Source: Escherichia coli (GTDB lineage: Bacteria > Pseudomonadota > Gammaproteobacteria > Enterobacterales > Enterobacteriaceae). Taken from it: a stretch of 64,000 nt of DNA. The position numbers were made by a program, and so were the translations under genes. The stretch lies in assembly GCF_002854065.1 (NCBI RefSeq), contig NZ_CP024147.1, one strand, 5' to 3'. The notes beneath the pieces are model-generated. The model ran no database searches. It saw nothing but the letters and a program-made list of their open reading frames with translations, and was not told where the DNA came from. Shown piece after piece: positions 1 to 16,003 of this stretch; positions within the stretch are counted from its first letter, which is position 1; every line of letters begins with the position of its first letter.

Positions 1-2271
1 GGCGTTATCACGACGCGCCATCTGGTTGCCTTCCGGCGTCCAGCTACCGGCGAAAATCCAGCAACCACAGGAGGTTGTACCGTCATCGCGCAGTTGGGCG
101 AACGAGCTAAGTTGTTGGCCTTTCTTGACGATAACCGCACCGGTTGCCGGATCGGTAATATCGGCCAGCGCCTTACCGTTGCTCTCCATCGCTACTTCTT
201 CCGACTTCGGCTCATGCGGAATGGCGTAGTTCCAGGTCATGTTCAGCACCTGGTCCGGGTTCGCGCCACCCTGTTCGGCATACATCTTGCGCAAGCGCAG
301 GAAGATACCGGAGAGGATCTCGCCGTCAGTCAGCGCAATCCCCGGGGCGTCCGCACCTTTCCAGTGCCACTGCAACCAGCGACCTGAGTTAACGATTGAA
401 CCGTTCTCTTCCGCGAAGCAGGTCGATGGCAGACGGAACACTTCGGTCTGGATCTTCGACGAGTCAACTTCGTTCAGCTCACCGTGGTTCTGCCAGAAGT
501 TAGAGGTTTCAGTGTTCAGCGGGTCGATGGTGACGAGGAACTTCAGTTTCGACAGACAACCGATCACTTTGTTTTTGTTCGGGAATGAGGCAACAGGGTT
601 AAAGCCCTGGCAGATATAGCCATTGACCTTGCCCTCTTTCATCATCTCGAAGTATTGTAGGACGTCGTAGCCTTTATCCCACTTCGGCAACCAGTCAAAG
701 CCCCAGCTATTTTCCGCCGTCGCTTTATCACCAAAGAAGGCCTTCATCATAGAGACGAAGAATTTCGGGTAGTTGCCCCAGTAGTTTACCTGGCCTTCCA
801 GCAGCGGTTTTGGCGTGTTGGCGGTAAGGTAGGTTTGCAGATCGGTCTGCTTCTCGCTTGGCAGCGTCATGTAACCTGGCAGGCTCTGCGACAGAAGGCC
901 CAGGTCCGTCAGCCCCTGAATATTGGAGTGACCGCGCAGGGCGTTAACGCCGCCGCCTGCCATCCCCATGTTGCCGAGCAGCAGCTGGATCATCGCCATC
1001 GTACGAATGTTTTGCGCACCAACGGAGTGTTGCGTCCAGCCGAGGGCATACAGGAACGAGGCAGTTTTATCGTGAGCACTGGTTTCTGCGATGTATTCGC
1101 AGACTTTCAGGAACGCGTCTTTTGGCGTACCACAGATGTTTTCAACCACATCTGGCGTGTAGCGGGAAACGTGCTGTTTCAGCAAGTTCCACACGCAGCG
1201 CGGATGTTGCAGCGTGGTATCGCGTTTGGCGAAGCCGTTTTCGTCCAGTTCGTAAGTCCAGGAGGATTTATCGTACTTGCGTTTTTCCGCGTCGTAGCCG
1301 GTGAACAGGCCATCTTCAAAGCCGTAATCCTCACGCACGATCAGGCTGGCGTTGGTATAGGCTTCGGTGTATTCGCGGTTGAATTTTTCATTGTTCAGCA
1401 GGTACAGCAATACGCCTGACAGGAAAGCAATGTCAGTACCGGAACGAATAGGGGCATAGTAGTCAGCTACCGCCGCCGTACGCGTAAAGCGAGGATCGAT
1501 CACAATCAGCTTCGCGCCATTGTGAATTTTGGCTTCCATCGCCCAGCGGAACCCGACCGGGTGAGCTTCAGCGGCGTTACCGCCCATCACCACGACGAGG
1601 TTGGCGTTCTTGATGTCGACCCAGTGGTTGGTCATCGCACCGCGACCAAATGTTGGAGCAAGACTTGCTACCGTTGGTCCGTGTCAGACACGCGCCTGGT
1701 TGTCGACCGCGAGCATACCCAGCGCGCGGGAGAATTTTTGCGTTAAATAGCCGGTTTCGTTACTCGACGCGGAAGCACACAGCATCCCGGTGGAGAGCCA
1801 GCGGTTAACAGTCACGCCTTCGGCGTTTTGCGCAATGTAGTTAGCATCGCGGTCTTCTTTCATCAGTTTGGCGATGCGATCAAACGCCTCTTCCCAACTG
1901 ATTTGCTGCCATTTATCAGAACCTGGCGCACGGTATTCCGGAAACTTCAGACGGCTTTCGGAGTGGATGAAATCCACCAGGCCAGCGCCTTTCGGACAAA
2001 GTGCACCGCGGTTGACCGGGTGATCCGGATCGCCTTCGATATGGAAGATAGATGCTTTGGCGTTTTTTGCTCCGTCACCGAGGCTGTACATCAACAGCCC
2101 ACAGCCTACGGAACAATAGGTGCAGGTATTACGGGTTTCGCGGGTGCGCAGCAGTTTATACTGCCGGGTTTCCGCGAGTGCTACGCTGGGTGCAAAACCC
2201 AGTGCCGCTGCCGTGGTGCCTGCCATACCGCCAGCGCAGATCTTAAAGAACTGCCTTCTGCTGACCTGCAT
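1..2271 (-). CDS. fdoG: Formate dehydrogenase-O major subunit (selenoprotein), partial; N-terminus at 2271, runs off window start
   Basis: N-terminal Tat motif MQVSRRQFFK; molybdopterin oxidoreductase-like sequence; in-frame TGA at 1684-1686 with the same frame staying open to position 1. Confidence 0.9.
1640..1686 (-). other. Selenocysteine UGA codon (1684-1686) plus predicted SECIS hairpin immediately 3' in the coding frame
   Basis: Frame continues ...VDNQARV-U-HGPTVASLAPTFGRG...; position matches the Sec site of FdoG/FdnG/FdhF-type enzymes; hairpin not folded computationally. Confidence 0.6.
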
Positions 2272-4554: not shown

Positions 4555-4993
4555 TTCACCCCTTGTGAAGTAACTCCATAAATGCCTCATATCCTGTTAA
4601 CCCGGCAATAACTTCTGCCGGATGCTGACACAATACGCTTGCCAGATAGCTGAATATTTTTAGCTCATGACGCGCATCGGCGGCGGCGCAGGCGATCAAA
4701 ACATGGTTAATGACTTCGTTATTCACCTCAACTGATTGGGCGAGGGTAATAAAAAATCCACGAAAACGTCGCTCCTGTTCGCTCCAGCAATGTGGGATGG
4801 CGAGGCGATTAACAATCAGGTTTTCACCTTCGCCTTCGCGGGCGATGATCCGTTGCGCTTCATCGGCGGTAATATGGTGTTGTGCGACTAATTGCGCACA
4901 AATTTGCCGGGTAATATGTTGCCAGCTTTCACCGCGTACATTCGAATAATGAAAACTTCCGGGGGCAGAGAAAAAACGCTCCGGTTGCTGGCG
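4555..4993 (-). pseudogene. frvR: 3' remnant (146 codons) of PTS-regulator gene frvR, C-terminal EIIA-like domain (AIPH motif); 5' part replaced by IS1
   Basis: Manual minus-strand translation gives an open frame from the IS1 junction to a stop at 4555-4557: ...NLIVNRLAIPHCWSEQERRFRGFF...MELLHKG*; lies next to yiiG as frvR does in K-12. Confidence 0.6.
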
Positions 4994-5008
4994 GGTAATG
5001 ACTCCAAC

Positions 5009-5512
5009 TTATTGATAGTGTTTTATGTTCAGATAATGCCCGATGACTTTGTCATGCAGCTCCACCGATTTTGAGAACGACAGCGACTTCCGTCCCAGCC
5101 GTGCCAGGTGCTGCCTCAGATTCAGGTTATGCCGCTCAATTCGCTGCGTATATCGCTTGCTGATTACGTGCAGCTTTCCCTTCAGGCGGGATTCATACAG
5201 CGGCCAGCCATCCGTCATCCATATCACCACGTCAAAGGGTGACAGCAGGCTCATAAGACGCCCCAGCGTCGCCATAGTGCGTTCACCGAATACGTGCGCA
5301 ACAACCGTCTTCCGGAGCCTGTCATACGCGTAAAACAGCCAGCGCTGGCGCGATTTAGCCCCGACGTATCCCCACTGTTCGTCCATTTCCGCGCAGACGA
5401 TGACGTCACTGCCCGGCTGTATGCGCGAGGTTACCGACTGCGGCCTGAGTTTTTTAAATGGCGGAAAATCGTGTTGAGGCCAACGCCCATAATGCGGGCG
5501 GTTGCCCGGCAT
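5009..5512 (-). CDS. insB: IS1 transposase InsB frame (expressed as InsAB' by -1 frameshift)
   Basis: 167-aa [16 protein letters not shown]... identical to copy 2. Confidence 0.9.
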
Positions 5513-5706
5513 CCAACGCCATTCATGGCCATATCAATGATTTTCTGGTGCGTACCGGGTTGAGAAGCGGTGTAAGTGAACTGCAGTTGCCATGTTTTAC
5601 GGCAGTGAGAGCAGAGATAGCGCTGATGTCCGGCAGTGCTTTTGCCGTTACGCACCACCCCGTCAGTAGCTGAACAGGAGGGACAGCTGATAGAAACAGA
5701 AGCCAC
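5431..5706 (-). CDS. insA: IS1 InsA (transposition inhibitor / N-terminal part of transposase)
   Basis: 91-aa [26 protein letters not shown]... Confidence 0.9.
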
Positions 5707-5761
5707 TGGAGCACCTCAAAAACACCATCATACACTAAATCAGTAAGTTGGCAGCATCACC

Positions 5762-7063
5762 ATACGTCCCGAGGTAAATATTAAAGTTCTCCATATCCAT
5801 CACATTAGCGAACTGATAAGACGCATGAATGGTGTGAATGGTGTACGTCCCTTCATCATCAATCCAGCAGTCGTTATCACAAACTACACCGCTGAATTCA
5901 TCAATCTTATTGTGCGCGTAGATATAACCGAGCTCGAAACGTTTCCACAGCGCGTTAATCCCGGCAGTGAAATCTTTCTCATTATTAGCATCTAAATAGG
6001 CGGTATTAAGATTAACCACAATGCCATTGTCCGGATCCGTTTTCAGGCCGTTCCAGGTCATGCTCATACCATAGCCGGTACGATCGGACTGATCGACAAA
6101 ATTACCCTTGCTATCGGTATAACCATAAGCATTATTTACCACGTTCGCTTCCATCGCTGCGGAAACGGTGAATTCTTCCGTCGGCGACCAGGCAATTACT
6201 GGGCGCAGATAAGCAACATTTTTCTGCTGCTCCATATCGCGTCCATGATAATTACCGTCATTATATAAAGATGTTCCGTCTTCAAGTAACGTATTTAATT
6301 CAAAATACCAGTTATCGAGTTGTTTGCTGACGAGGAAATTACCGCCAGCGTTAGAGCGCCCGCGGCCCTCTTTCATCATATAGATATAACCGCTGCCATC
6401 GTCATAAAGATCGTTCGCAGTATTACCGGAATGTTCAACAAAGGTATCCTGATTCAGCGGGAACATATCGTAGGCTTCAAAACGGCCTACTTTGACCTTC
6501 CAGTCGTTTTCTTTGCCAAAGAAGAATACCGCATCATCGATATTTACTGAACCGTGCATATCACCCAGCGGTTGTGCGGAGAACCCGGCGAAATAACCGT
6601 TGTCCATCTTTCGCATACCGTCAAAACCTAACAGAATACGACCATTGAGATTCCACTGTTCATTAGTGGGATCGCTATTCACATCAGCGTTGGTCATTGC
6701 CAGCAGGCCATGATTACTTTCCGCATCCATATTAAATTCTACGTCGCCGTAGATTTTTAAATCGCCATAACCTGAAAGCAAAAGATTAGGTGAGGTGGCA
6801 TTTTTCTTTGCAGATTCCGTCGTTGCCTGTCCATTTACCGGCGTATTGCCCTGAGCGGCCTTAATTTCGCGGATCTCAGCGGCTTGTTGTGTCTGCAGCT
6901 GTTTAACCTGGCTCTCTGCTTTTGCTGCCCGCATTTCTGCCGCTTCCAGGCGTTCTTCCAGCAATGCCATGCGTTGTTCCAGCGTTAAATGCTGTGTTTT
7001 TGCCATACCGGTACTACATGCCAATAATAAACCGATGGCTAAAGATAATGTCGATTTTTTCAT
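5762..7063 (-). pseudogene. 5' part (434 codons) of a sugar-porin-like outer membrane protein gene, interrupted by IS1; the annotated ORF's last 8 codons (GDAANLLI*) come from the IS1 end
   Basis: Signal peptide MKKSTLSLAIGLLLACSTGMA, N-terminal coiled-coil (LEQRMALLEERLEAAEMRAAKAESQVKQLQ), then Gly/Tyr/Asn/Asp-rich sequence typical of beta-barrel glycoporins; ORF runs into the IS1 inverted repeat. Confidence 0.75.
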
Positions 7064-7540
7064 TATTTACGTTCCCTGAAATAAAGGAGGCCCTACGCTT
7101 TCCAAAAGGAATACGTATATAGAGAAATATAAAGTGTGCACTTTCGAATTTTTAATCCAACTTCAGCAGGCCGATGGATAGTATCCCGCCGCATAATATG
7201 AGTAAATCCGCTGATTTCCTGGAACGTGAGGAATATAACAATAGTGCCGTTTTTAACTAAATATCGTAAAAAATATTAGATATGATTCACGCTGACTCAT
7301 AAGCCACAAATATAAATAATGTTTAGACAAATTATCTGAGACATTTAAACATTCACAAAATCATTAAAGAATGATTTTTTATTCACAAGATTTATTTTAC
7401 CTACTAATATGTGCCTTACGCCGCAAAATTTATCCTTCACTCTGCTTTATATTGTCACGACTTCACGACATATCCGCGCTCATCACAAACCCGCCCCGCT
7501 ATTACAATTAACGTAAATATTTTTTCATGGAGTCCGATTA
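7064..7540. promoter_or_regulatory. AT-rich divergent intergenic region between porin gene and PTS EIIA-like gene; contains palindrome AATCATT-N4-AATGATT (7358-7375) flanked by attcacaa direct repeats
   Basis: Sequence inspection only; no promoter experimentally placed. Confidence 0.3.
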
Positions 7541-7694
7541 ATGGCAGCTCTTACTGCAAGCTGTATTGACCTGAATATTCAGGGCAATGGCACTTATTCC
7601 ATTCTGAAACAGTTAGCGACAATGGCGTTACAAAACGGTTTTATCACCGACTCACACCAGTTCCTGCAAACCCTGCTGCTGCGCGAAAAAATGC
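7541..7694 (+). pseudogene. 5' fragment (51 codons) of a PTS EIIA (fructose/mannitol-type) gene, possibly frvA, truncated by IS1 copy 2
   Basis: ATG at 7541 with GGAG upstream; MAALTASCIDLNIQGNGTYSILKQLATMALQNGFITDSHQFLQTLLLREKM resembles EIIA N-termini; frame stops inside the IS1 repeat. Confidence 0.5.
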
Positions 7695-7749
7695 GGTGAT
7701 GCTGCCAACTTACTGATTTAGTGTATGATGGTGTTTTTGAGGTGCTCCA

Positions 7750-8025
7750 GTGGCTTCTGTTTCTATCAGCTGTCCCTCCTGTTCAGCTACTGACGGGGTG
7801 GTGCGTAACGGCAAAAGCACTGCCGGACATCAGCGCTATCTCTGCTCTCACTGCCGTAAAACATGGCAACTGCAGTTCACTTACACCGCTTCTCAACCCG
7901 GTACGCACCAGAAAATCATTGATATGGCCATGAATGGCGTTGGATGCCGGGCAACCGCCCGCATTATGGGCGTTGGCCTCAACACGATTTTCCGCCATTT
8001 AAAAAACTCAGGCCGCAGTCGGTAA
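7750..8025 (+). CDS. insA: IS1 InsA
   Basis: 91-aa ORF identical to copy 1. Confidence 0.9.
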
Positions 8026-8447
8026 CCTCGCGCATACAGCCGGGCAGTGACGTCATCGTCTGCGCGGAAATGGACGAACAGTGGGGATACGTCGGGGCTA
8101 AATCGCGCCAGCGCTGGCTGTTTTACGCGTATGACAGGCTCCGGAAGACGGTTGTTGCGCACGTATTCGGTGAACGCACTATGGCGACGCTGGGGCGTCT
8201 TATGAGCCTGCTGTCACCCTTTGACGTGGTGATATGGATGACGGATGGCTGGCCGCTGTATGAATCCCGCCTGAAGGGAAAGCTGCACGTAATCAGCAAG
8301 CGATATACGCAGCGAATTGAGCGGCATAACCTGAATCTGAGGCAGCACCTGGCACGGCTGGGACGGAAGTCGCTGTCGTTCTCAAAATCGGTGGAGCTGC
8401 ATGACAAAGTCATCGGGCATTATCTGAACATAAAACACTATCAATAA
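7944..8447 (+). CDS. insB: IS1 transposase InsB frame
   Basis: 167-aa ORF identical to copy 1; A6C slippery motif ttaaaaaactc at about 7999-8009. Confidence 0.9.
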
Positions 8448-8462
8448 GTTGGAGTCATTACC

Positions 8463-8564
8463 GGGACGTATTACTCCATTCTGGATAGCGACGGCGATAA
8501 AAAACACGGTGATGATACTGATGACCGTTACGGCGCACGCGTTCGCTTTAAATACTTCTTCTGA
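8463..8564 (+). pseudogene. Displaced 3' end of the porin gene (33 codons including the 9-bp target duplication, then stop)
   Basis: Starts with gggacgtat (reverse complement of 5762-5770) and reads in frame YSILDSDGDKKHGDDTDDRYGARVRFKYFF*, a classic beta-barrel C-terminus with terminal Phe. Confidence 0.65.
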
Positions 8565-8604
8565 TGAAGGCGCGGTGCTGGATATTTTCCGGCACCGCAA
8601 CTCA

Positions 8605-8919
8605 TTAAGGCAGGTAAAACACTTCTTGCAGCTCGCTACTCACCGGGCTGTTATCCGGGTTAGCTGGCATAACGTCGGTCATATATTTCCACCAACGTTG
8701 GCAGATTTCAGTGCTGGCTACCGCATTCCACCGTTCTTCAGATTCAATCTCTACCATGGCAAACAGCAGATTACGCGCTTTGTCGAGGTAAATGGCGTAG
8801 TTATGCGCACCGTGAGATTTCAACACTGCTTCCAGTTCCGGCCAGATGGGGTTATGCCGACGCTGATACTCTTCGTGGGCGTCGGGGTTAACCTGCATGA
8901 CAAAGGCTTTGCGGATCAT
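8605..8919 (-). CDS. rhaM: L-rhamnose mutarotase
   Basis: 104-aa [31 protein letters not shown]...; downstream of rhaD. Confidence 0.9.
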
Positions 8920-8928
8920 GTTTGCTCC

Positions 8929-9753
8929 TTACAGCGCCAGCGCACTGGCTAGTGGTGTAACGCCGAAGCGCTTGCCGAGCGCTATCAACTCTTCACGGCT
9001 GATGGTCTGTTTCATGCCGCCCATCGAATAAATCTTCACTAATACTTGTGCTGATTTTTCTGCGGTGTCGATTAAACCGAATGTTTCATCCAGCGTCGGT
9101 CCGGAACCGAACACACCGTGGAAGGGCCACAACACCAGCGAATGTTTCTGCATCTCTTGTGCGGTCGCCTGGCCGATTTCGTCCGTGCCGGGCACCATCC
9201 ACGGCAGAATGCCAACGCCATCCGGGAATACCACCAGACACTCGGTGCTGCCTTCCCACAGTTGGCGAGTAAAGACCGCGGTGTCGTTTTCCAGTACATA
9301 GGTGAGGGCGATCAGGTTGGTGGCGTGGCAGTGCATGATCACCCGATCTTTACCGTTGGTGGCTTTAATGCGCTCGCAGTGGGAGAGAAAGTGAGCCGGA
9401 AGTTCAGAAGTTGGAACGGCTTCGTTGGTTAACCCCCAGAGAATATGGTAGCCCGCGCCGTCGCTGTCGACTTTTACGACGCCTAAGTTAGCTGCAGGAT
9501 CAAGCTGGACGTTACGGAAGAATTTGCCGGAGCCGGTGACAATAAACGGCGTATTTGCCAGTAAAGGCATGGGCTGGCTGAGCGGAATATAGCGCGGTTG
9601 TGGGTGGAAGTTGTCGTGATAAAGCGCGATATCGGCGTCATCCAGGCGCAGCGTCAGGTTGCCGCCGTTGCGCTCGTCCCAGCCTTTCAGCCAGGCATCG
9701 GTGGTGGCTTTGATCATTCCCTGGACAAACCAGGACTGGGTAATGTTTTGCAT
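8929..9753 (-). CDS. rhaD: Rhamnulose-1-phosphate aldolase
   Basis: Start placed at [25 protein letters not shown] (274 aa); longer ORF-track call runs upstream into the REP array. Confidence 0.9.
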
Positions 9754-9797
9754 GTTCTGTGTTCCTGTAAATTCGGTGTTGTCGGATGCACGACCCG

Positions 9798-10196
9798 TAG
9801 GCCGGATAAGGCGCTCGTGCCGCATCCGGCAATCAATGCCTGATGCGACGCTGTCGCGTCTTATCAGGCCTACAACTATTGCCGACCTGTAGGCCGGATA
9901 AGGCACTTGTGCCGCATCCGGCAATCAATGCCTGATGCGACGCTGTTGCGTCTTATCAGGCCTACAACTGTTGCCGACCTGTAGGCCGGATAAGGCACTT
10001 GTGCCGCATCCGGCAATCAATGCCTGATGCGACGCTGTCGCGTCTTATCAGGCCTACAACTATTGCCGACCTGTAGGCCGGATAAGGCACTTGTGCCGCA
10101 TCCGGCAATCAATGCCTGATGCGATGTCGCGTCTTATCAGGCCTACAACTGTTGCCGACCTGTAGGCCGGATAAGGCACTTGTGCCGCATCCGGCA
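9798..10196. repeat. BIME/REP array: about four tandem ~100-bp units, each with two REP palindromes
   Basis: Unit gtaggccggataaggcRctYgtgccgcatccggcaatcaatgcctgatgcgacgctgtYgcgtcttatcaggcctacaactRttgccgacct repeats head-to-tail with point differences. Confidence 0.85.
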
Positions 10197-10200
10197 GTGT

Positions 10201-13213
<3,013 letters not shown>

Positions 13214-14050
13214 ATGACCGTATTACATAGTGTGGATTTTTTTCCGTCTGGTAACGCGTCCGTGGCGATAGAACCCCGGCTCCCGCAGGCGGATTTTCCT
13301 GAACATCATCATGATTTTCATGAAATTGTGATTGTCGAACATGGCACGGGTATTCATGTGTTTAATGGGCAGCCCTATACCATCACCGGTGGCACGGTCT
13401 GTTTTGTGCGCGACCATGATCGGCATCTGTATGAACATACCGATAATCTGTGTCTGACCAATGTGCTATATCGCTCGCCGGATCGATTTCAGTTTCTCGC
13501 CGGGCTGAATCAGTTGCTGCCACAAGAGCTGGATGGGCAGTATCCGTCTCACTGGCGCGTTAACCACAGCGTATTGCAGCAGGTGCGACAGCTGGTTGCA
13601 CAGATGGAACAGCAGGAAGGGGAAAATGATTTACCCTCGACCGCCAGTCGCGAGATCTTGTTTATGCAATTACTGCTCTTGCTGCGTAAAAGCAGTTTGC
13701 AGGAGAACCTGGAAAACAGCGCATCACGTCTCAACTTGCTTCTGGCCTGGCTGGAGGACCATTTTGCCGATGAGGTGAATTGGGATGCCGTGGCGGATCA
13801 ATTTTCTCTTTCGCTGCGTACGCTACATCGGCAGCTTAAGCAGCAAACGGGACTGACGCCTCAGCGTTACCTGAACCGCCTGCGACTGATGAAGGCTCGA
13901 CATCTGCTACGTCACAGCGAGGCCAGCGTTACTGACATCGCCTATCATTGCGGATTCAGCGACAGTAACCACTTTTCAACGCTTTTTCGCCGAGAGTTTA
14001 ACTGGTCACCGCGTGATATTCGTCAGGGACGGGATGGCTTTCTGCAATAA
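13214..14050 (+). CDS. rhaS: AraC-family activator RhaS
   Basis: 278-aa ORF with C-terminal AraC-type HTH. Confidence 0.95.
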
Positions 14051-14123
14051 CGCGAATCTTCTCAACGTATTTGTACGCCATATTGCGAATAATCAACTTC
14101 GTTCTCTGGCCGAGGTAGCCACG

Positions 14124-14972
14124 GTGGCGCATCAGTTAAAACTTCTCAAAGATGATTTTTTTGCCAGCGACCAGCAGGCAGTCGCTGTGGCTGACCGTTA
14201 TCCGCAAGATGTCTTTGCTGAACATACACATGATTTTTGTGAGCTGGTGATTGTCTGGCGCGGTAATGGTCTGCATGTACTCAACGATCGCCCTTATCGC
14301 ATTACCCGTGGCGATCTCTTTTACATTCATGCTGACGATAAACACTCCTACGCTTCCGTTAACGATCTGGTTTTGCAGAATATTATTTATTGCCCGGAGC
14401 GGCTGAAGCTGAATCTTGACTGGCAGGGGGCGATTCCGGGATTTAGCGCCAGCGCAGGGCAACCACACTGGCGCTTAGGTAGCATGGGGATGGCACAGGC
14501 GCGGCAGGTTATCGGTCAGCTTGAGCATGAAAGTAGTCAGCATGTGCCGTTTGCTAACGAAATGGCAGAGTTGCTGTTCGGGCAGTTGGTGATGTTGCTG
14601 AATCGCCATCGTTACACCAGTGATTCGTTGCCGCCAACATCCAGCGAAACGTTGCTGGATAAGCTGATTACCCGGTTGGCGGCTAGCCTGAAAAGTCCCT
14701 TTGCGCTGGATAAATTTTGTGATGAGGCATCGTGCAGTGAGCGCGTTTTGCGTCAGCAATTTCGCCAGCAGACTGGAATGACCATCAATCAATATCTGCG
14801 GCAGGTCAGAGTGTGTCATGCGCAATATCTTCTCCAGCATAGCCGCCTGTTAATCAGTGATATTTCGACCGAATGTGGCTTTGAAGATAGTAACTATTTT
14901 TCGGTGGTGTTTACCCGGGAAACCGGGATGACGCCCAGCCAGTGGCGCCATCTCAATTCGCAGAAAGATTAA
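14124..14972 (+). CDS. rhaR: AraC-family activator RhaR (GTG start assumed at VAHQLKLL)
   Basis: ORF-track call starts earlier at 14013; start chosen to give the 282-aa protein I recall. Confidence 0.8.
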
Positions 14973-16003
14973 TTCGCCATGCCGATGCCGACGATGTTAG
15001 CGGCGACAATAATCACCACACAACCGAGGCTCAACACCGTTACCGGACGGCGTCCTGCATTGTTCCACTCTTTCAGCTCCAGCCCGACGATACCGCCGCA
15101 CAATACATAGAAACTCATATGCAGCATCCAACTGATGTAGTCATACTGCGCCGGAATGCGGGCGTGGCCCCAGGCATAGAAAAAGAATTGCAGATACCAC
15201 ATCAACCCGCCCAGTGCCGAGAGTAACACATTGTGAATGATCAGCGATTTTGCCAGCGAGAAGTCGGATTTTAGCGACAAATCCTTCACTTTTGCCAGAC
15301 GAATAAAACAGAAACCGAGGTTAATGATCGCGCCGCCGCCCATGATGACAACATAGCTTGGCAGAGCGACATACAGTGGATCGACGCCTAGTGCGGCAGC
15401 GGCTTCATGCATCGGTTTTGCGGCGTTCATCGCAAAGGACATCCCGGCAGAGAAAATGCCGCACATCACCGCCAGCACCAGTCCTTTTTTCAGATTGAAC
15501 TCTTCGGCTTTAATGCCCATCTTGCGCTCTTTCAACTGCCCGGCTCGAGTTACAATCCCTACGCCAATCAGCGCCACCAGAACGCCGAGCAACGTCATGC
15601 GTCCGCCTTCGGTGCTAATCAACACATCGAAATTGCCGTTGATAATTGGCGTCATCAGCGTACCGACAATCAACGTAATGCCAATGGCGATGCCAATTCC
15701 CATCGACATGCCGAGATAACGCATGGTCAGGCCGTAGTTGATATTACCGATCCCCCACATAGCGCCGAACAGAAAAACAGGCAGCAGCGTAGAGAGACTA
15801 AACGAGCTGTAATACGCCCAGAAATTCGGTAGTAACAGGGCGCTGATGGCCCACGGCAGAATAATCCACGAAACAATCCCACCGACTGACCACATGGTTT
15901 CCCATGACCATTTTTTTACTTTTTTGAACGGAGCGTAAAAACAGGCTGCACTGGCCGCGCCGATCAAATGCCAAAATATCCCCATCGTAATCGCGTTACT
16001 CAT
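14969..16003 (-). CDS. rhaT: L-rhamnose-proton symporter
   Basis: 344-aa polytopic membrane protein. Confidence 0.95.

Follow-up and report, generated by a model that had tools for sequence, protein, structure and literature searches.

Probable IS1-mediated inactivation of a chromosomal RafY-family glycoporin gene next to the rhamnose cluster of Escherichia coli

RafY-family glycoporins (TC 1.B.15), for which 16 strands are predicted, are listed beside the LamB-type sugar-porin family (PMC4827864). The formation of an oligosaccharide-permeable channel has been established for plasmid RafY only (references cited in PMC4827864 and PMC4809568), and in O157:H7 genomes a chromosomal rafY homolog was annotated as rafY2 in strains that do not carry rafRABD (PMC4809568). 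The locus described here lies in a 64,000-nucleotide stretch of E. coli contig NZ_CP024147.1 (assembly GCF_002854065.1), hereafter called the window, in which a porin gene located next to rhaM is separated into two parts by two copies of the insertion sequence (IS) IS1. With high confidence, the locus is best explained as a recently inactivated chromosomal pseudogene of the RafY glycoporin family, produced by an IS1 lesion, an inversion and a later deletion of frv DNA. Once reconstructed, the gene product resembles RafY of the raffinose plasmids (pRSD2) in its length of 464 amino acids, its predicted signal peptide and N-terminal helical extension, and its C-terminal RFKYFF. It differs from plasmid RafY in being chromosomal, convergent with rhaM, not downstream of rafRABD and without raf genes nearby, and in being a broken pseudogene in this window. 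The E. coli "carbohydrate porin" or rafY2 (WP_000749940.1) is the same gene at the same locus, one amino acid and two nucleotides apart, the window differing from it by an IS1 interruption after codon 434 and by the inversion of the 5' part.

The 5' part of the porin gene (codons 1 to 434) occupies positions 5762..7063 on the minus strand. As stated in a preliminary description of this DNA, the reading frame continues into IS1; the open reading frame (ORF) listing and a self-comparison of the window established a chimeric ORF of 442 amino acids (5735..7063, minus strand, ending ...NIYLGTY+GDAANLLI*), in which 434 genuine codons are followed by 8 codons (GDAANLLI) and a stop provided by the IS1 left end. 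The 3' tail, encoding residues 435 to 464 (YSILDSDGDKKHGDDTDDRYGARVRFKYFF) and ending with TGA, is found on the plus strand at 8472..8564, beyond the second IS1 copy; it includes the final beta-strand of the prediction together with the terminal Phe. Its frame is kept for exactly 30 codons (8472-8561), as had been proposed, and is closed by the TGA at 8562-8564, after which a second TGA follows. Joining the reverse complement of 5762-7063 to 8472-8564 gave a sequence of 1,395 nt or 464 codons, and the recipe proposed earlier (reverse complement of 5771-7063, gggacgtat, then 8472-8564) leads to an equivalent sequence.

The reconstructed gene was compared by megablast with 5,426 complete E. coli genomes. 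The best match (99.9% identity) was an intact gene of E. coli TB06052, annotated as "carbohydrate porin" (WP_000749940.1), with which the reconstruction aligns from end to end, 2 of 1,395 nucleotides and one amino acid being different. This agreement is far beyond chance and bears out an ancestral gene of about 464 codons. Since these are the only differences from the intact gene and no other lesion was seen, the inactivation of the porin is recent. At least 80% of the porin gene was found in 2,556 of these genomes, or about half of them. In TB06052 the gene order is yiiG (+), frvR-frvX-frvB-frvA (all -), porin (+) and rhaM (-); an intact gene between frvA and rhaM, convergent with the latter, is what the preliminary description had expected in other E. 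coli genomes. That description had also known of no porin at this position in K-12, and the gene is indeed missing from K-12 MG1655, where only 300 bp separate frvA from rhaM and about 150 bp of unrelated sequence stand in place of the 1,761 bp carrying the porin gene and its promoter. A literature search combining frvA, rhaM and porin returned nothing relevant.

The two IS1 copies are each 768 bp long. Copy 1 lies on the minus strand (4994..5761, right end at 4994 and left end at 5761) and copy 2 on the plus strand (7695..8462, left end at 7695 and right end at 8462). They are identical at 768 of 768 positions, in inverted orientation, and the self-comparison found no other long repeat in the window. 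Their length, terminal inverted repeats of about 23 bp, insA/insB' ORFs and 9-bp target duplication are those of IS1, and the equivalent copies in relatives are labelled IS1A/IS1B transposase by RefSeq. The segment between them, 1,933 bp long and flipped, holds porin codons 1 to 434, the promoter region and frvA codons 1 to 51. Of the two copies of the 9-bp target duplication, the inner one, ATACGTCCC (5762..5770), is the reverse complement of GGGACGTAT and corresponds to porin codons 432 to 434, and the outer copy, GGGACGTAT (8463..8471), lies directly outside IS1 copy 2. Each break thus carries one copy, the two being inverted relative to each other, and the sequence occurs once in the intact gene (TB06052 L001 9294-9302).

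Alignment with the TB06052 locus (L001) defined the rearrangement. Window 5762-7694 matches L001 9302-7371 in inverted orientation, the window from 8463 on matches L001 from 9294 onward, and window 4537-4993 matches L001 2789-3245, inside frvR (L001 2808-4556). The 4,125 bp of L001 3246-7370, containing the 5' part of frvR, frvX, frvB and the 3' part of frvA, are absent from the window; this deletion, which accompanies the inversion, was missing from the preliminary description. The right end of IS1 copy 1 adjoins the 3' remnant of frvR (last 145 codons and stop, 4556..4993, minus strand), and the left end of copy 2 adjoins the 5' remnant of frvA (51 codons and one nucleotide, 7541..7694, plus strand). 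The reading frames of both remnants are intact. The divergent frvA-porin intergenic (promoter) region (7064..7540) was carried within the inverted segment and matches L001 7525-8000 reversed. At the porin junctions, an IS1 left end is used in one case and a right end in the other, and both share the 9-bp duplication; an inverted IS pair, a target duplication that is itself inverted (one copy inside and one outside) and a segment inverted with respect to the ancestor together form the pattern of replicative inversion.

The locus is therefore a split gene with an inverted segment, as had been noted before, while the view that the inversion itself split the gene corresponds to only one of several histories, the lesion being a junction made by IS1 transposition, with 9 bp duplicated. 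Identical inverted copies, a split and inverted 9-bp duplication and a deletion abutting an IS end are also found in IS1-mediated adjacent deletions and inversions; the present locus is the same in kind and represents a compound case with at least three events. The inverted IS1 pair was also considered as a functional invertible switch; this was rejected, as flipping the segment back leaves an IS1 between codons 434 and 435.

The junctions, the duplication, the inversion, the deletion, the family assignment and an intermediate with an intact frv operon are shown by the sequences; we infer how, and in which order, the separate IS1 events took place. The ancestral order was yiiG (+), frvR frvX frvB frvA (-), a 476-bp divergent promoter region, the porin gene (+), a hairpin and rhaM (-). 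An IS1 end was joined within porin codons 432 to 434 at GGGACGTAT, with duplication of 9 bp, and a second IS1 lies in frvR in inverted orientation. The flipping of the DNA between the copies was either a direct result of replicative transposition of IS1 within the molecule or the outcome of recombination by RecA, after two copies had been inserted independently. A later IS1-adjacent deletion of 4,125 bp beside the left end of copy 2 left only frvA codons 1 to 51 in the flipped segment. Three histories, with the porin IS1 first, the frvR IS1 first, or two insertions followed by recombination, lead to an identical product and cannot be separated. A single-step variant, which takes the preliminary description literally, starts from an IS1 already present in frvR; its intramolecular replicative transposition into the porin gene, at a distance of 6 kb, would have generated the second copy, the duplication and the inversion together, the frv deletion coming afterwards. 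This variant is a real possibility that we hold only tentatively. It would yield exactly what is seen, namely inverted duplication copies of which one lies within the IS pair and the other beyond it, and porin junctions made by different IS1 ends, one left and one right, but the same structure would be given by a porin IS1 attacking frvR or by two insertions with homologous recombination.

Related strains provided evidence on both sides of this single-step variant. Among complete genomes, that of E. coli CUWW06 (NZ_CP182139.1) is the closest, 7.9 kb of it matching the window at 100.0% identity. Its frvR-IS1 junction is that of the window, at 100% identity, and the occurrence there of this junction alone favors the single-step variant, as does the finding of no simple, non-inverted insertion in the window's orientation among the complete E. 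coli genomes. The other IS1 end of CUWW06 abuts a rhaT fragment, and the inverted porin segment, rhaM, rhaD, rhaA, rhaB, rhaS, rhaR and most of rhaT (window ~4994-15920) are gone; a further deletion by this IS1 copy thus took away the rhamnose cluster of the sister strain. On the other side, EC09 bears a plain IS1 insertion at the identical 9 bp GGGACGTAT, directly duplicated, in the opposite orientation and with an intact frv operon, and the IS1-tail junction is shared by a second lineage, in which the frvR copy of the element is lacking. Strains 2018-11-3CC and ECZP248 have the same IS1-GGGACGTAT-tail junction, that of ECZP248 containing one additional C, and the IS1 junction of HS30-1 lies 26 nt further in; in these three strains the other IS1 end abuts fdhD.

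Further insertions were found within the porin gene. In B18271 an IS1 lies 84 nt upstream with the duplication GAAGGGACG, a GGGACGTA core being common to the flanking sequence, and in cM2a an IS1 is inserted near codon 78. The porin gene is thus a recurrent IS1 target, and these data suggest a local hot spot. This putative hot spot, containing GGGACGTA, has been used by IS1 at least twice independently, in opposite orientations, in addition to other sites in the gene. Identical junctions in separate lineages need not be shared by descent. Neither the frvA-IS1 junction nor the junction of the porin 5' part with the IS1 left end was found in one piece among the complete E. coli genomes, so the arrangement of the window occurs in no complete genome of the collection.

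The chromosomal setting of the gene was also compared outside E. coli. A Citrobacter ortholog (L019/L020, gene at 8001-9392), 85% identical, is likewise convergent with rhaM; it has no frv operon nearby, its upstream neighbours being azlCD and a helix-turn-helix/cupin regulator gene. Conserved linkage thus involves the rhamnose cluster and not frv; it appears to be ancestral, and the absence of the porin from K-12 appears to be a derived state. That the porin would also be tied to the rhamnose cluster in function, for example in the uptake of rhamnose-containing oligosaccharides, and that its repeated loss through IS1 would have been selected and not neutral, for example as an escape from a phage or a toxic solute entering by the channel, seems improbable. 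A Buttiauxella homolog, 63% identical, ends an operon with an ATP-binding cassette (ABC) transporter, a glycoside hydrolase (GH) family 13 enzyme and a GH130 enzyme, and this operon and the plasmid raf operon would fit a role as outer-membrane oligosaccharide channel.

A homology search yielded 658 relatives; among the best 120 of them the full-length proteins measure 455 to 470 amino acids and come from Citrobacter, Kluyvera, Klebsiella, Enterobacter, Buttiauxella and others. In these homologs the tail is present and ends in an invariant RYGxRxRFKYxF C-terminus. The porin of plasmid p98228-contig_4 is identical at 360 of 464 residues (77%) and ends an operon with genes for a LacI-type regulator, an alpha-galactosidase, a major facilitator superfamily (MFS) transporter and a GH32 enzyme. 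It was identified as RafY from this operon context, its record not naming it as such. Some plasmid copies, with a nucleotide identity of about 86-88%, close operons of raffinose layout.

Pfam model PF16966 ("Porin-like glycoporin RafY", Porin_8) matched residues 104-464 over its whole length (positions 1-372 of 372, E 2.7e-153) and was matched by all 32 aligned sequences, whereas the LamB barrel domain (PF02264) gave no match in the reconstructed protein at E<=10. Among the LamB/ScrY/RafY-type porins with which a comparison had been proposed earlier, the family is RafY and not LamB/ScrY. No family was assigned in an NCBIfam scan of the reconstructed protein, so that the porin name rests on Pfam and on RefSeq annotation. 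The reconstruction is that of an outer-membrane beta-barrel with a C-terminal aromatic signal, as in the RafY family, and the terminal aromatic-rich strand ending in Phe, already pointed out in the preliminary description, corresponds to the C-terminus that is invariant in the 32 sequences. In this alignment R453, Y454, G455, R457, R459, F460, K461, Y462 and F464 are invariant, and the codons of all of them lie in the detached tail.

The alignment served to build an AlphaFold2 model of moderate confidence (mean predicted local distance difference test score 60, predicted TM-score 0.59). It shows a long helix at residues 28-70 and a barrel of about 16 strands, the final ones being 427-440 and 451-463. 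No PDB chain matched the reconstructed protein in sequence, and the fold comparison consequently rests on the predicted model. With this moderate-confidence model as query, the scores were 18.5 for ScrY and 17.7 for maltoporin (LamB), and 16-stranded porins scored higher. The barrel is thus modelled as porin-like and not as that of a LamB-family member.

The N-terminal part is where the protein comes closest to ScrY. As in ScrY, the predicted extension is periplasmic and helical, about 45 residues long and heptad-like in its pattern, and a heptad register can be drawn over residues 25-72 with mostly hydrophobic residues or Ala at positions a and d. Sugarporin_N (PF11471) matched residues 27-54 weakly (E 0.06); it was significant in 13 of the 32 aligned sequences (best E 6.9e-07) and reached E<=0.1 in 31 of them. 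The sucrose-porin-like extension that had been proposed is thereby upheld, and at the family level it is of the ScrY type. This extension is also what would favor assignment to the LamB/ScrY sugar-porin family, with its 18 strands and greasy slide, instead of RafY. Unlike the extension, the barrel domain is not homologous to that of ScrY by sequence search and the model is nearer to 16-stranded porins, and we consider such an assignment very unlikely.

Evidence on the order of the events was obtained from a public assembly collection (Logan), in which the exact 442-amino-acid chimera is indexed in 72 blocks. Most contigs with the chimera are about 2.1-2.2 kb long with IS1 at both ends, which is the arrangement of the window. 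Three contigs (L016, L007 and L013) are 100% identical to window 5734-7694 (1,961 nt) and continue into an intact frvA. Of these, L016 (6,092 nt) spans frvB, frvX and 439 codons of frvR and stops at L001 3240, 6 nt from the frvR junction of the window. Since these contigs carry the porin junction together with an intact frvA, the porin junction predates the frv deletion. No chimera contig indexed in the 72 blocks exceeds 6.1 kb, a limit consistent with repeats bounding the segment at either end, and this intermediate was probably bounded by IS1 at frvR too.

The three contigs also rule out a history in which the deletion came first, that is, a single IS1 at the frvR/frvA deletion junction that later entered the intact porin gene and inverted a 1.9-kb segment. 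Such a course would be simple, with only two events after the first insertion and with fitting end orientations, but it scarcely deserves credence, as the same porin-IS1 junction is found beside an intact frvA and, in L016, also beside frvB, frvX and the 5' part of frvR. The reading that the 93 bases after copy 2 are unrelated, the porin ending near the IS1 junction without any split gene, is practically untenable in view of the end-to-end identity with intact genes, the hundreds of homologs of 455-470 amino acids running through the tail, and the Pfam match to its last model position (372 of 372) at residue 464 together with the C-terminal motif invariant in 32 sequences; homologs ending at the junction are excluded by the invariant C-terminal residues that the tail encodes.

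The consequence of the break can be deduced from its position in the predicted barrel. In the AlphaFold2 model, the IS1 break follows Y434, halfway along the penultimate predicted strand (427-440), and the 442-amino-acid chimera is without the C-terminal half of that strand and the entire last strand including the terminal Phe. Assembly of outer-membrane proteins needs a C-terminal aromatic signal. The promoter-proximal fragment may still be translated into the chimera; because the C-terminal strand with its terminal Phe is lost, we infer that the chimera would not be assembled into the outer membrane and that porin function would be lost. The whole Frv phosphotransferase system (PTS) operon was lost together with the porin, and this loss is recent since the frames of the frvR and frvA stubs are intact.

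Several points weigh against the reading of an IS1-inactivated pseudogene with an inversion and a later frv deletion. The frvR-IS1 and frvA-IS1 junctions do not have a matching 9-bp duplication, their flanks TTGCTGGCG and GCATTTTTT being different, and the two junctions (L001 3245 and L001 7371) are 4,125 bp apart and not contiguous in the ancestor. An extra event, namely a deletion, is therefore required, which brings the total to at least three, and it must be assumed, not being directly observable. At its frvR end, contig L016 holds no IS1 bases, while its other end holds 28 nt of IS1, and the evidence for an IS1 boundary at frvR is therefore indirect. Hypothetical FrvR-IS1 fusion proteins, with duplications of 9, 6 or 8 bp, are not on record. 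The strand assignments are approximate given the moderate confidence of the model.

Downstream of the porin tail, the 40-bp spacer between the convergent porin and rhaM stop codons contains a GC-rich hairpin (inner stem 8572..8598). The 51-nt stretch 8558-8608 folds at -28.1 kcal/mol (z = -7.6 versus shuffles), and the hairpin is probably a bidirectional terminator shared by the porin gene and rhaM. A simple terminator scan made no call at 8572-8598 because the hairpin is not followed by a T run, and a consensus scan for promoters and terminators gave nothing decisive at the locus. The convergent neighbour rhaM (8605..8919, minus strand) is intact. Further along, the rhaD-rhaA spacer (window 9791-10196) contains 4.4 tandem copies of a 92-bp unit of the repetitive extragenic palindrome/bacterial interspersed mosaic element (REP/BIME) type; Rfam scored four of these units as naRNA4, and the repeat copies give rise to spurious long ORFs such as 8929..9924. 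On the other side of the locus, Rfam reported the selenocysteine insertion element SECIS_3 at 1631-1689 (minus strand), where the gene for the alpha subunit of formate dehydrogenase precedes fdhD; such an element is expected there.

Taken together, the locus is an ordinary, textbook case of IS1-driven decay of a widely annotated gene and is already known in kind; its importance goes little beyond correct annotation. The porin pieces and the frvA and frvR stubs should be labelled as pseudogene fragments and not as genes, and the strain should be scored as being without a RafY-type porin and without the Frv PTS system. The locus provides a clean worked example of genome erosion by IS1 through insertion, inversion and adjacent deletion and, because related strains carry each junction separately, it could serve as a lineage marker.

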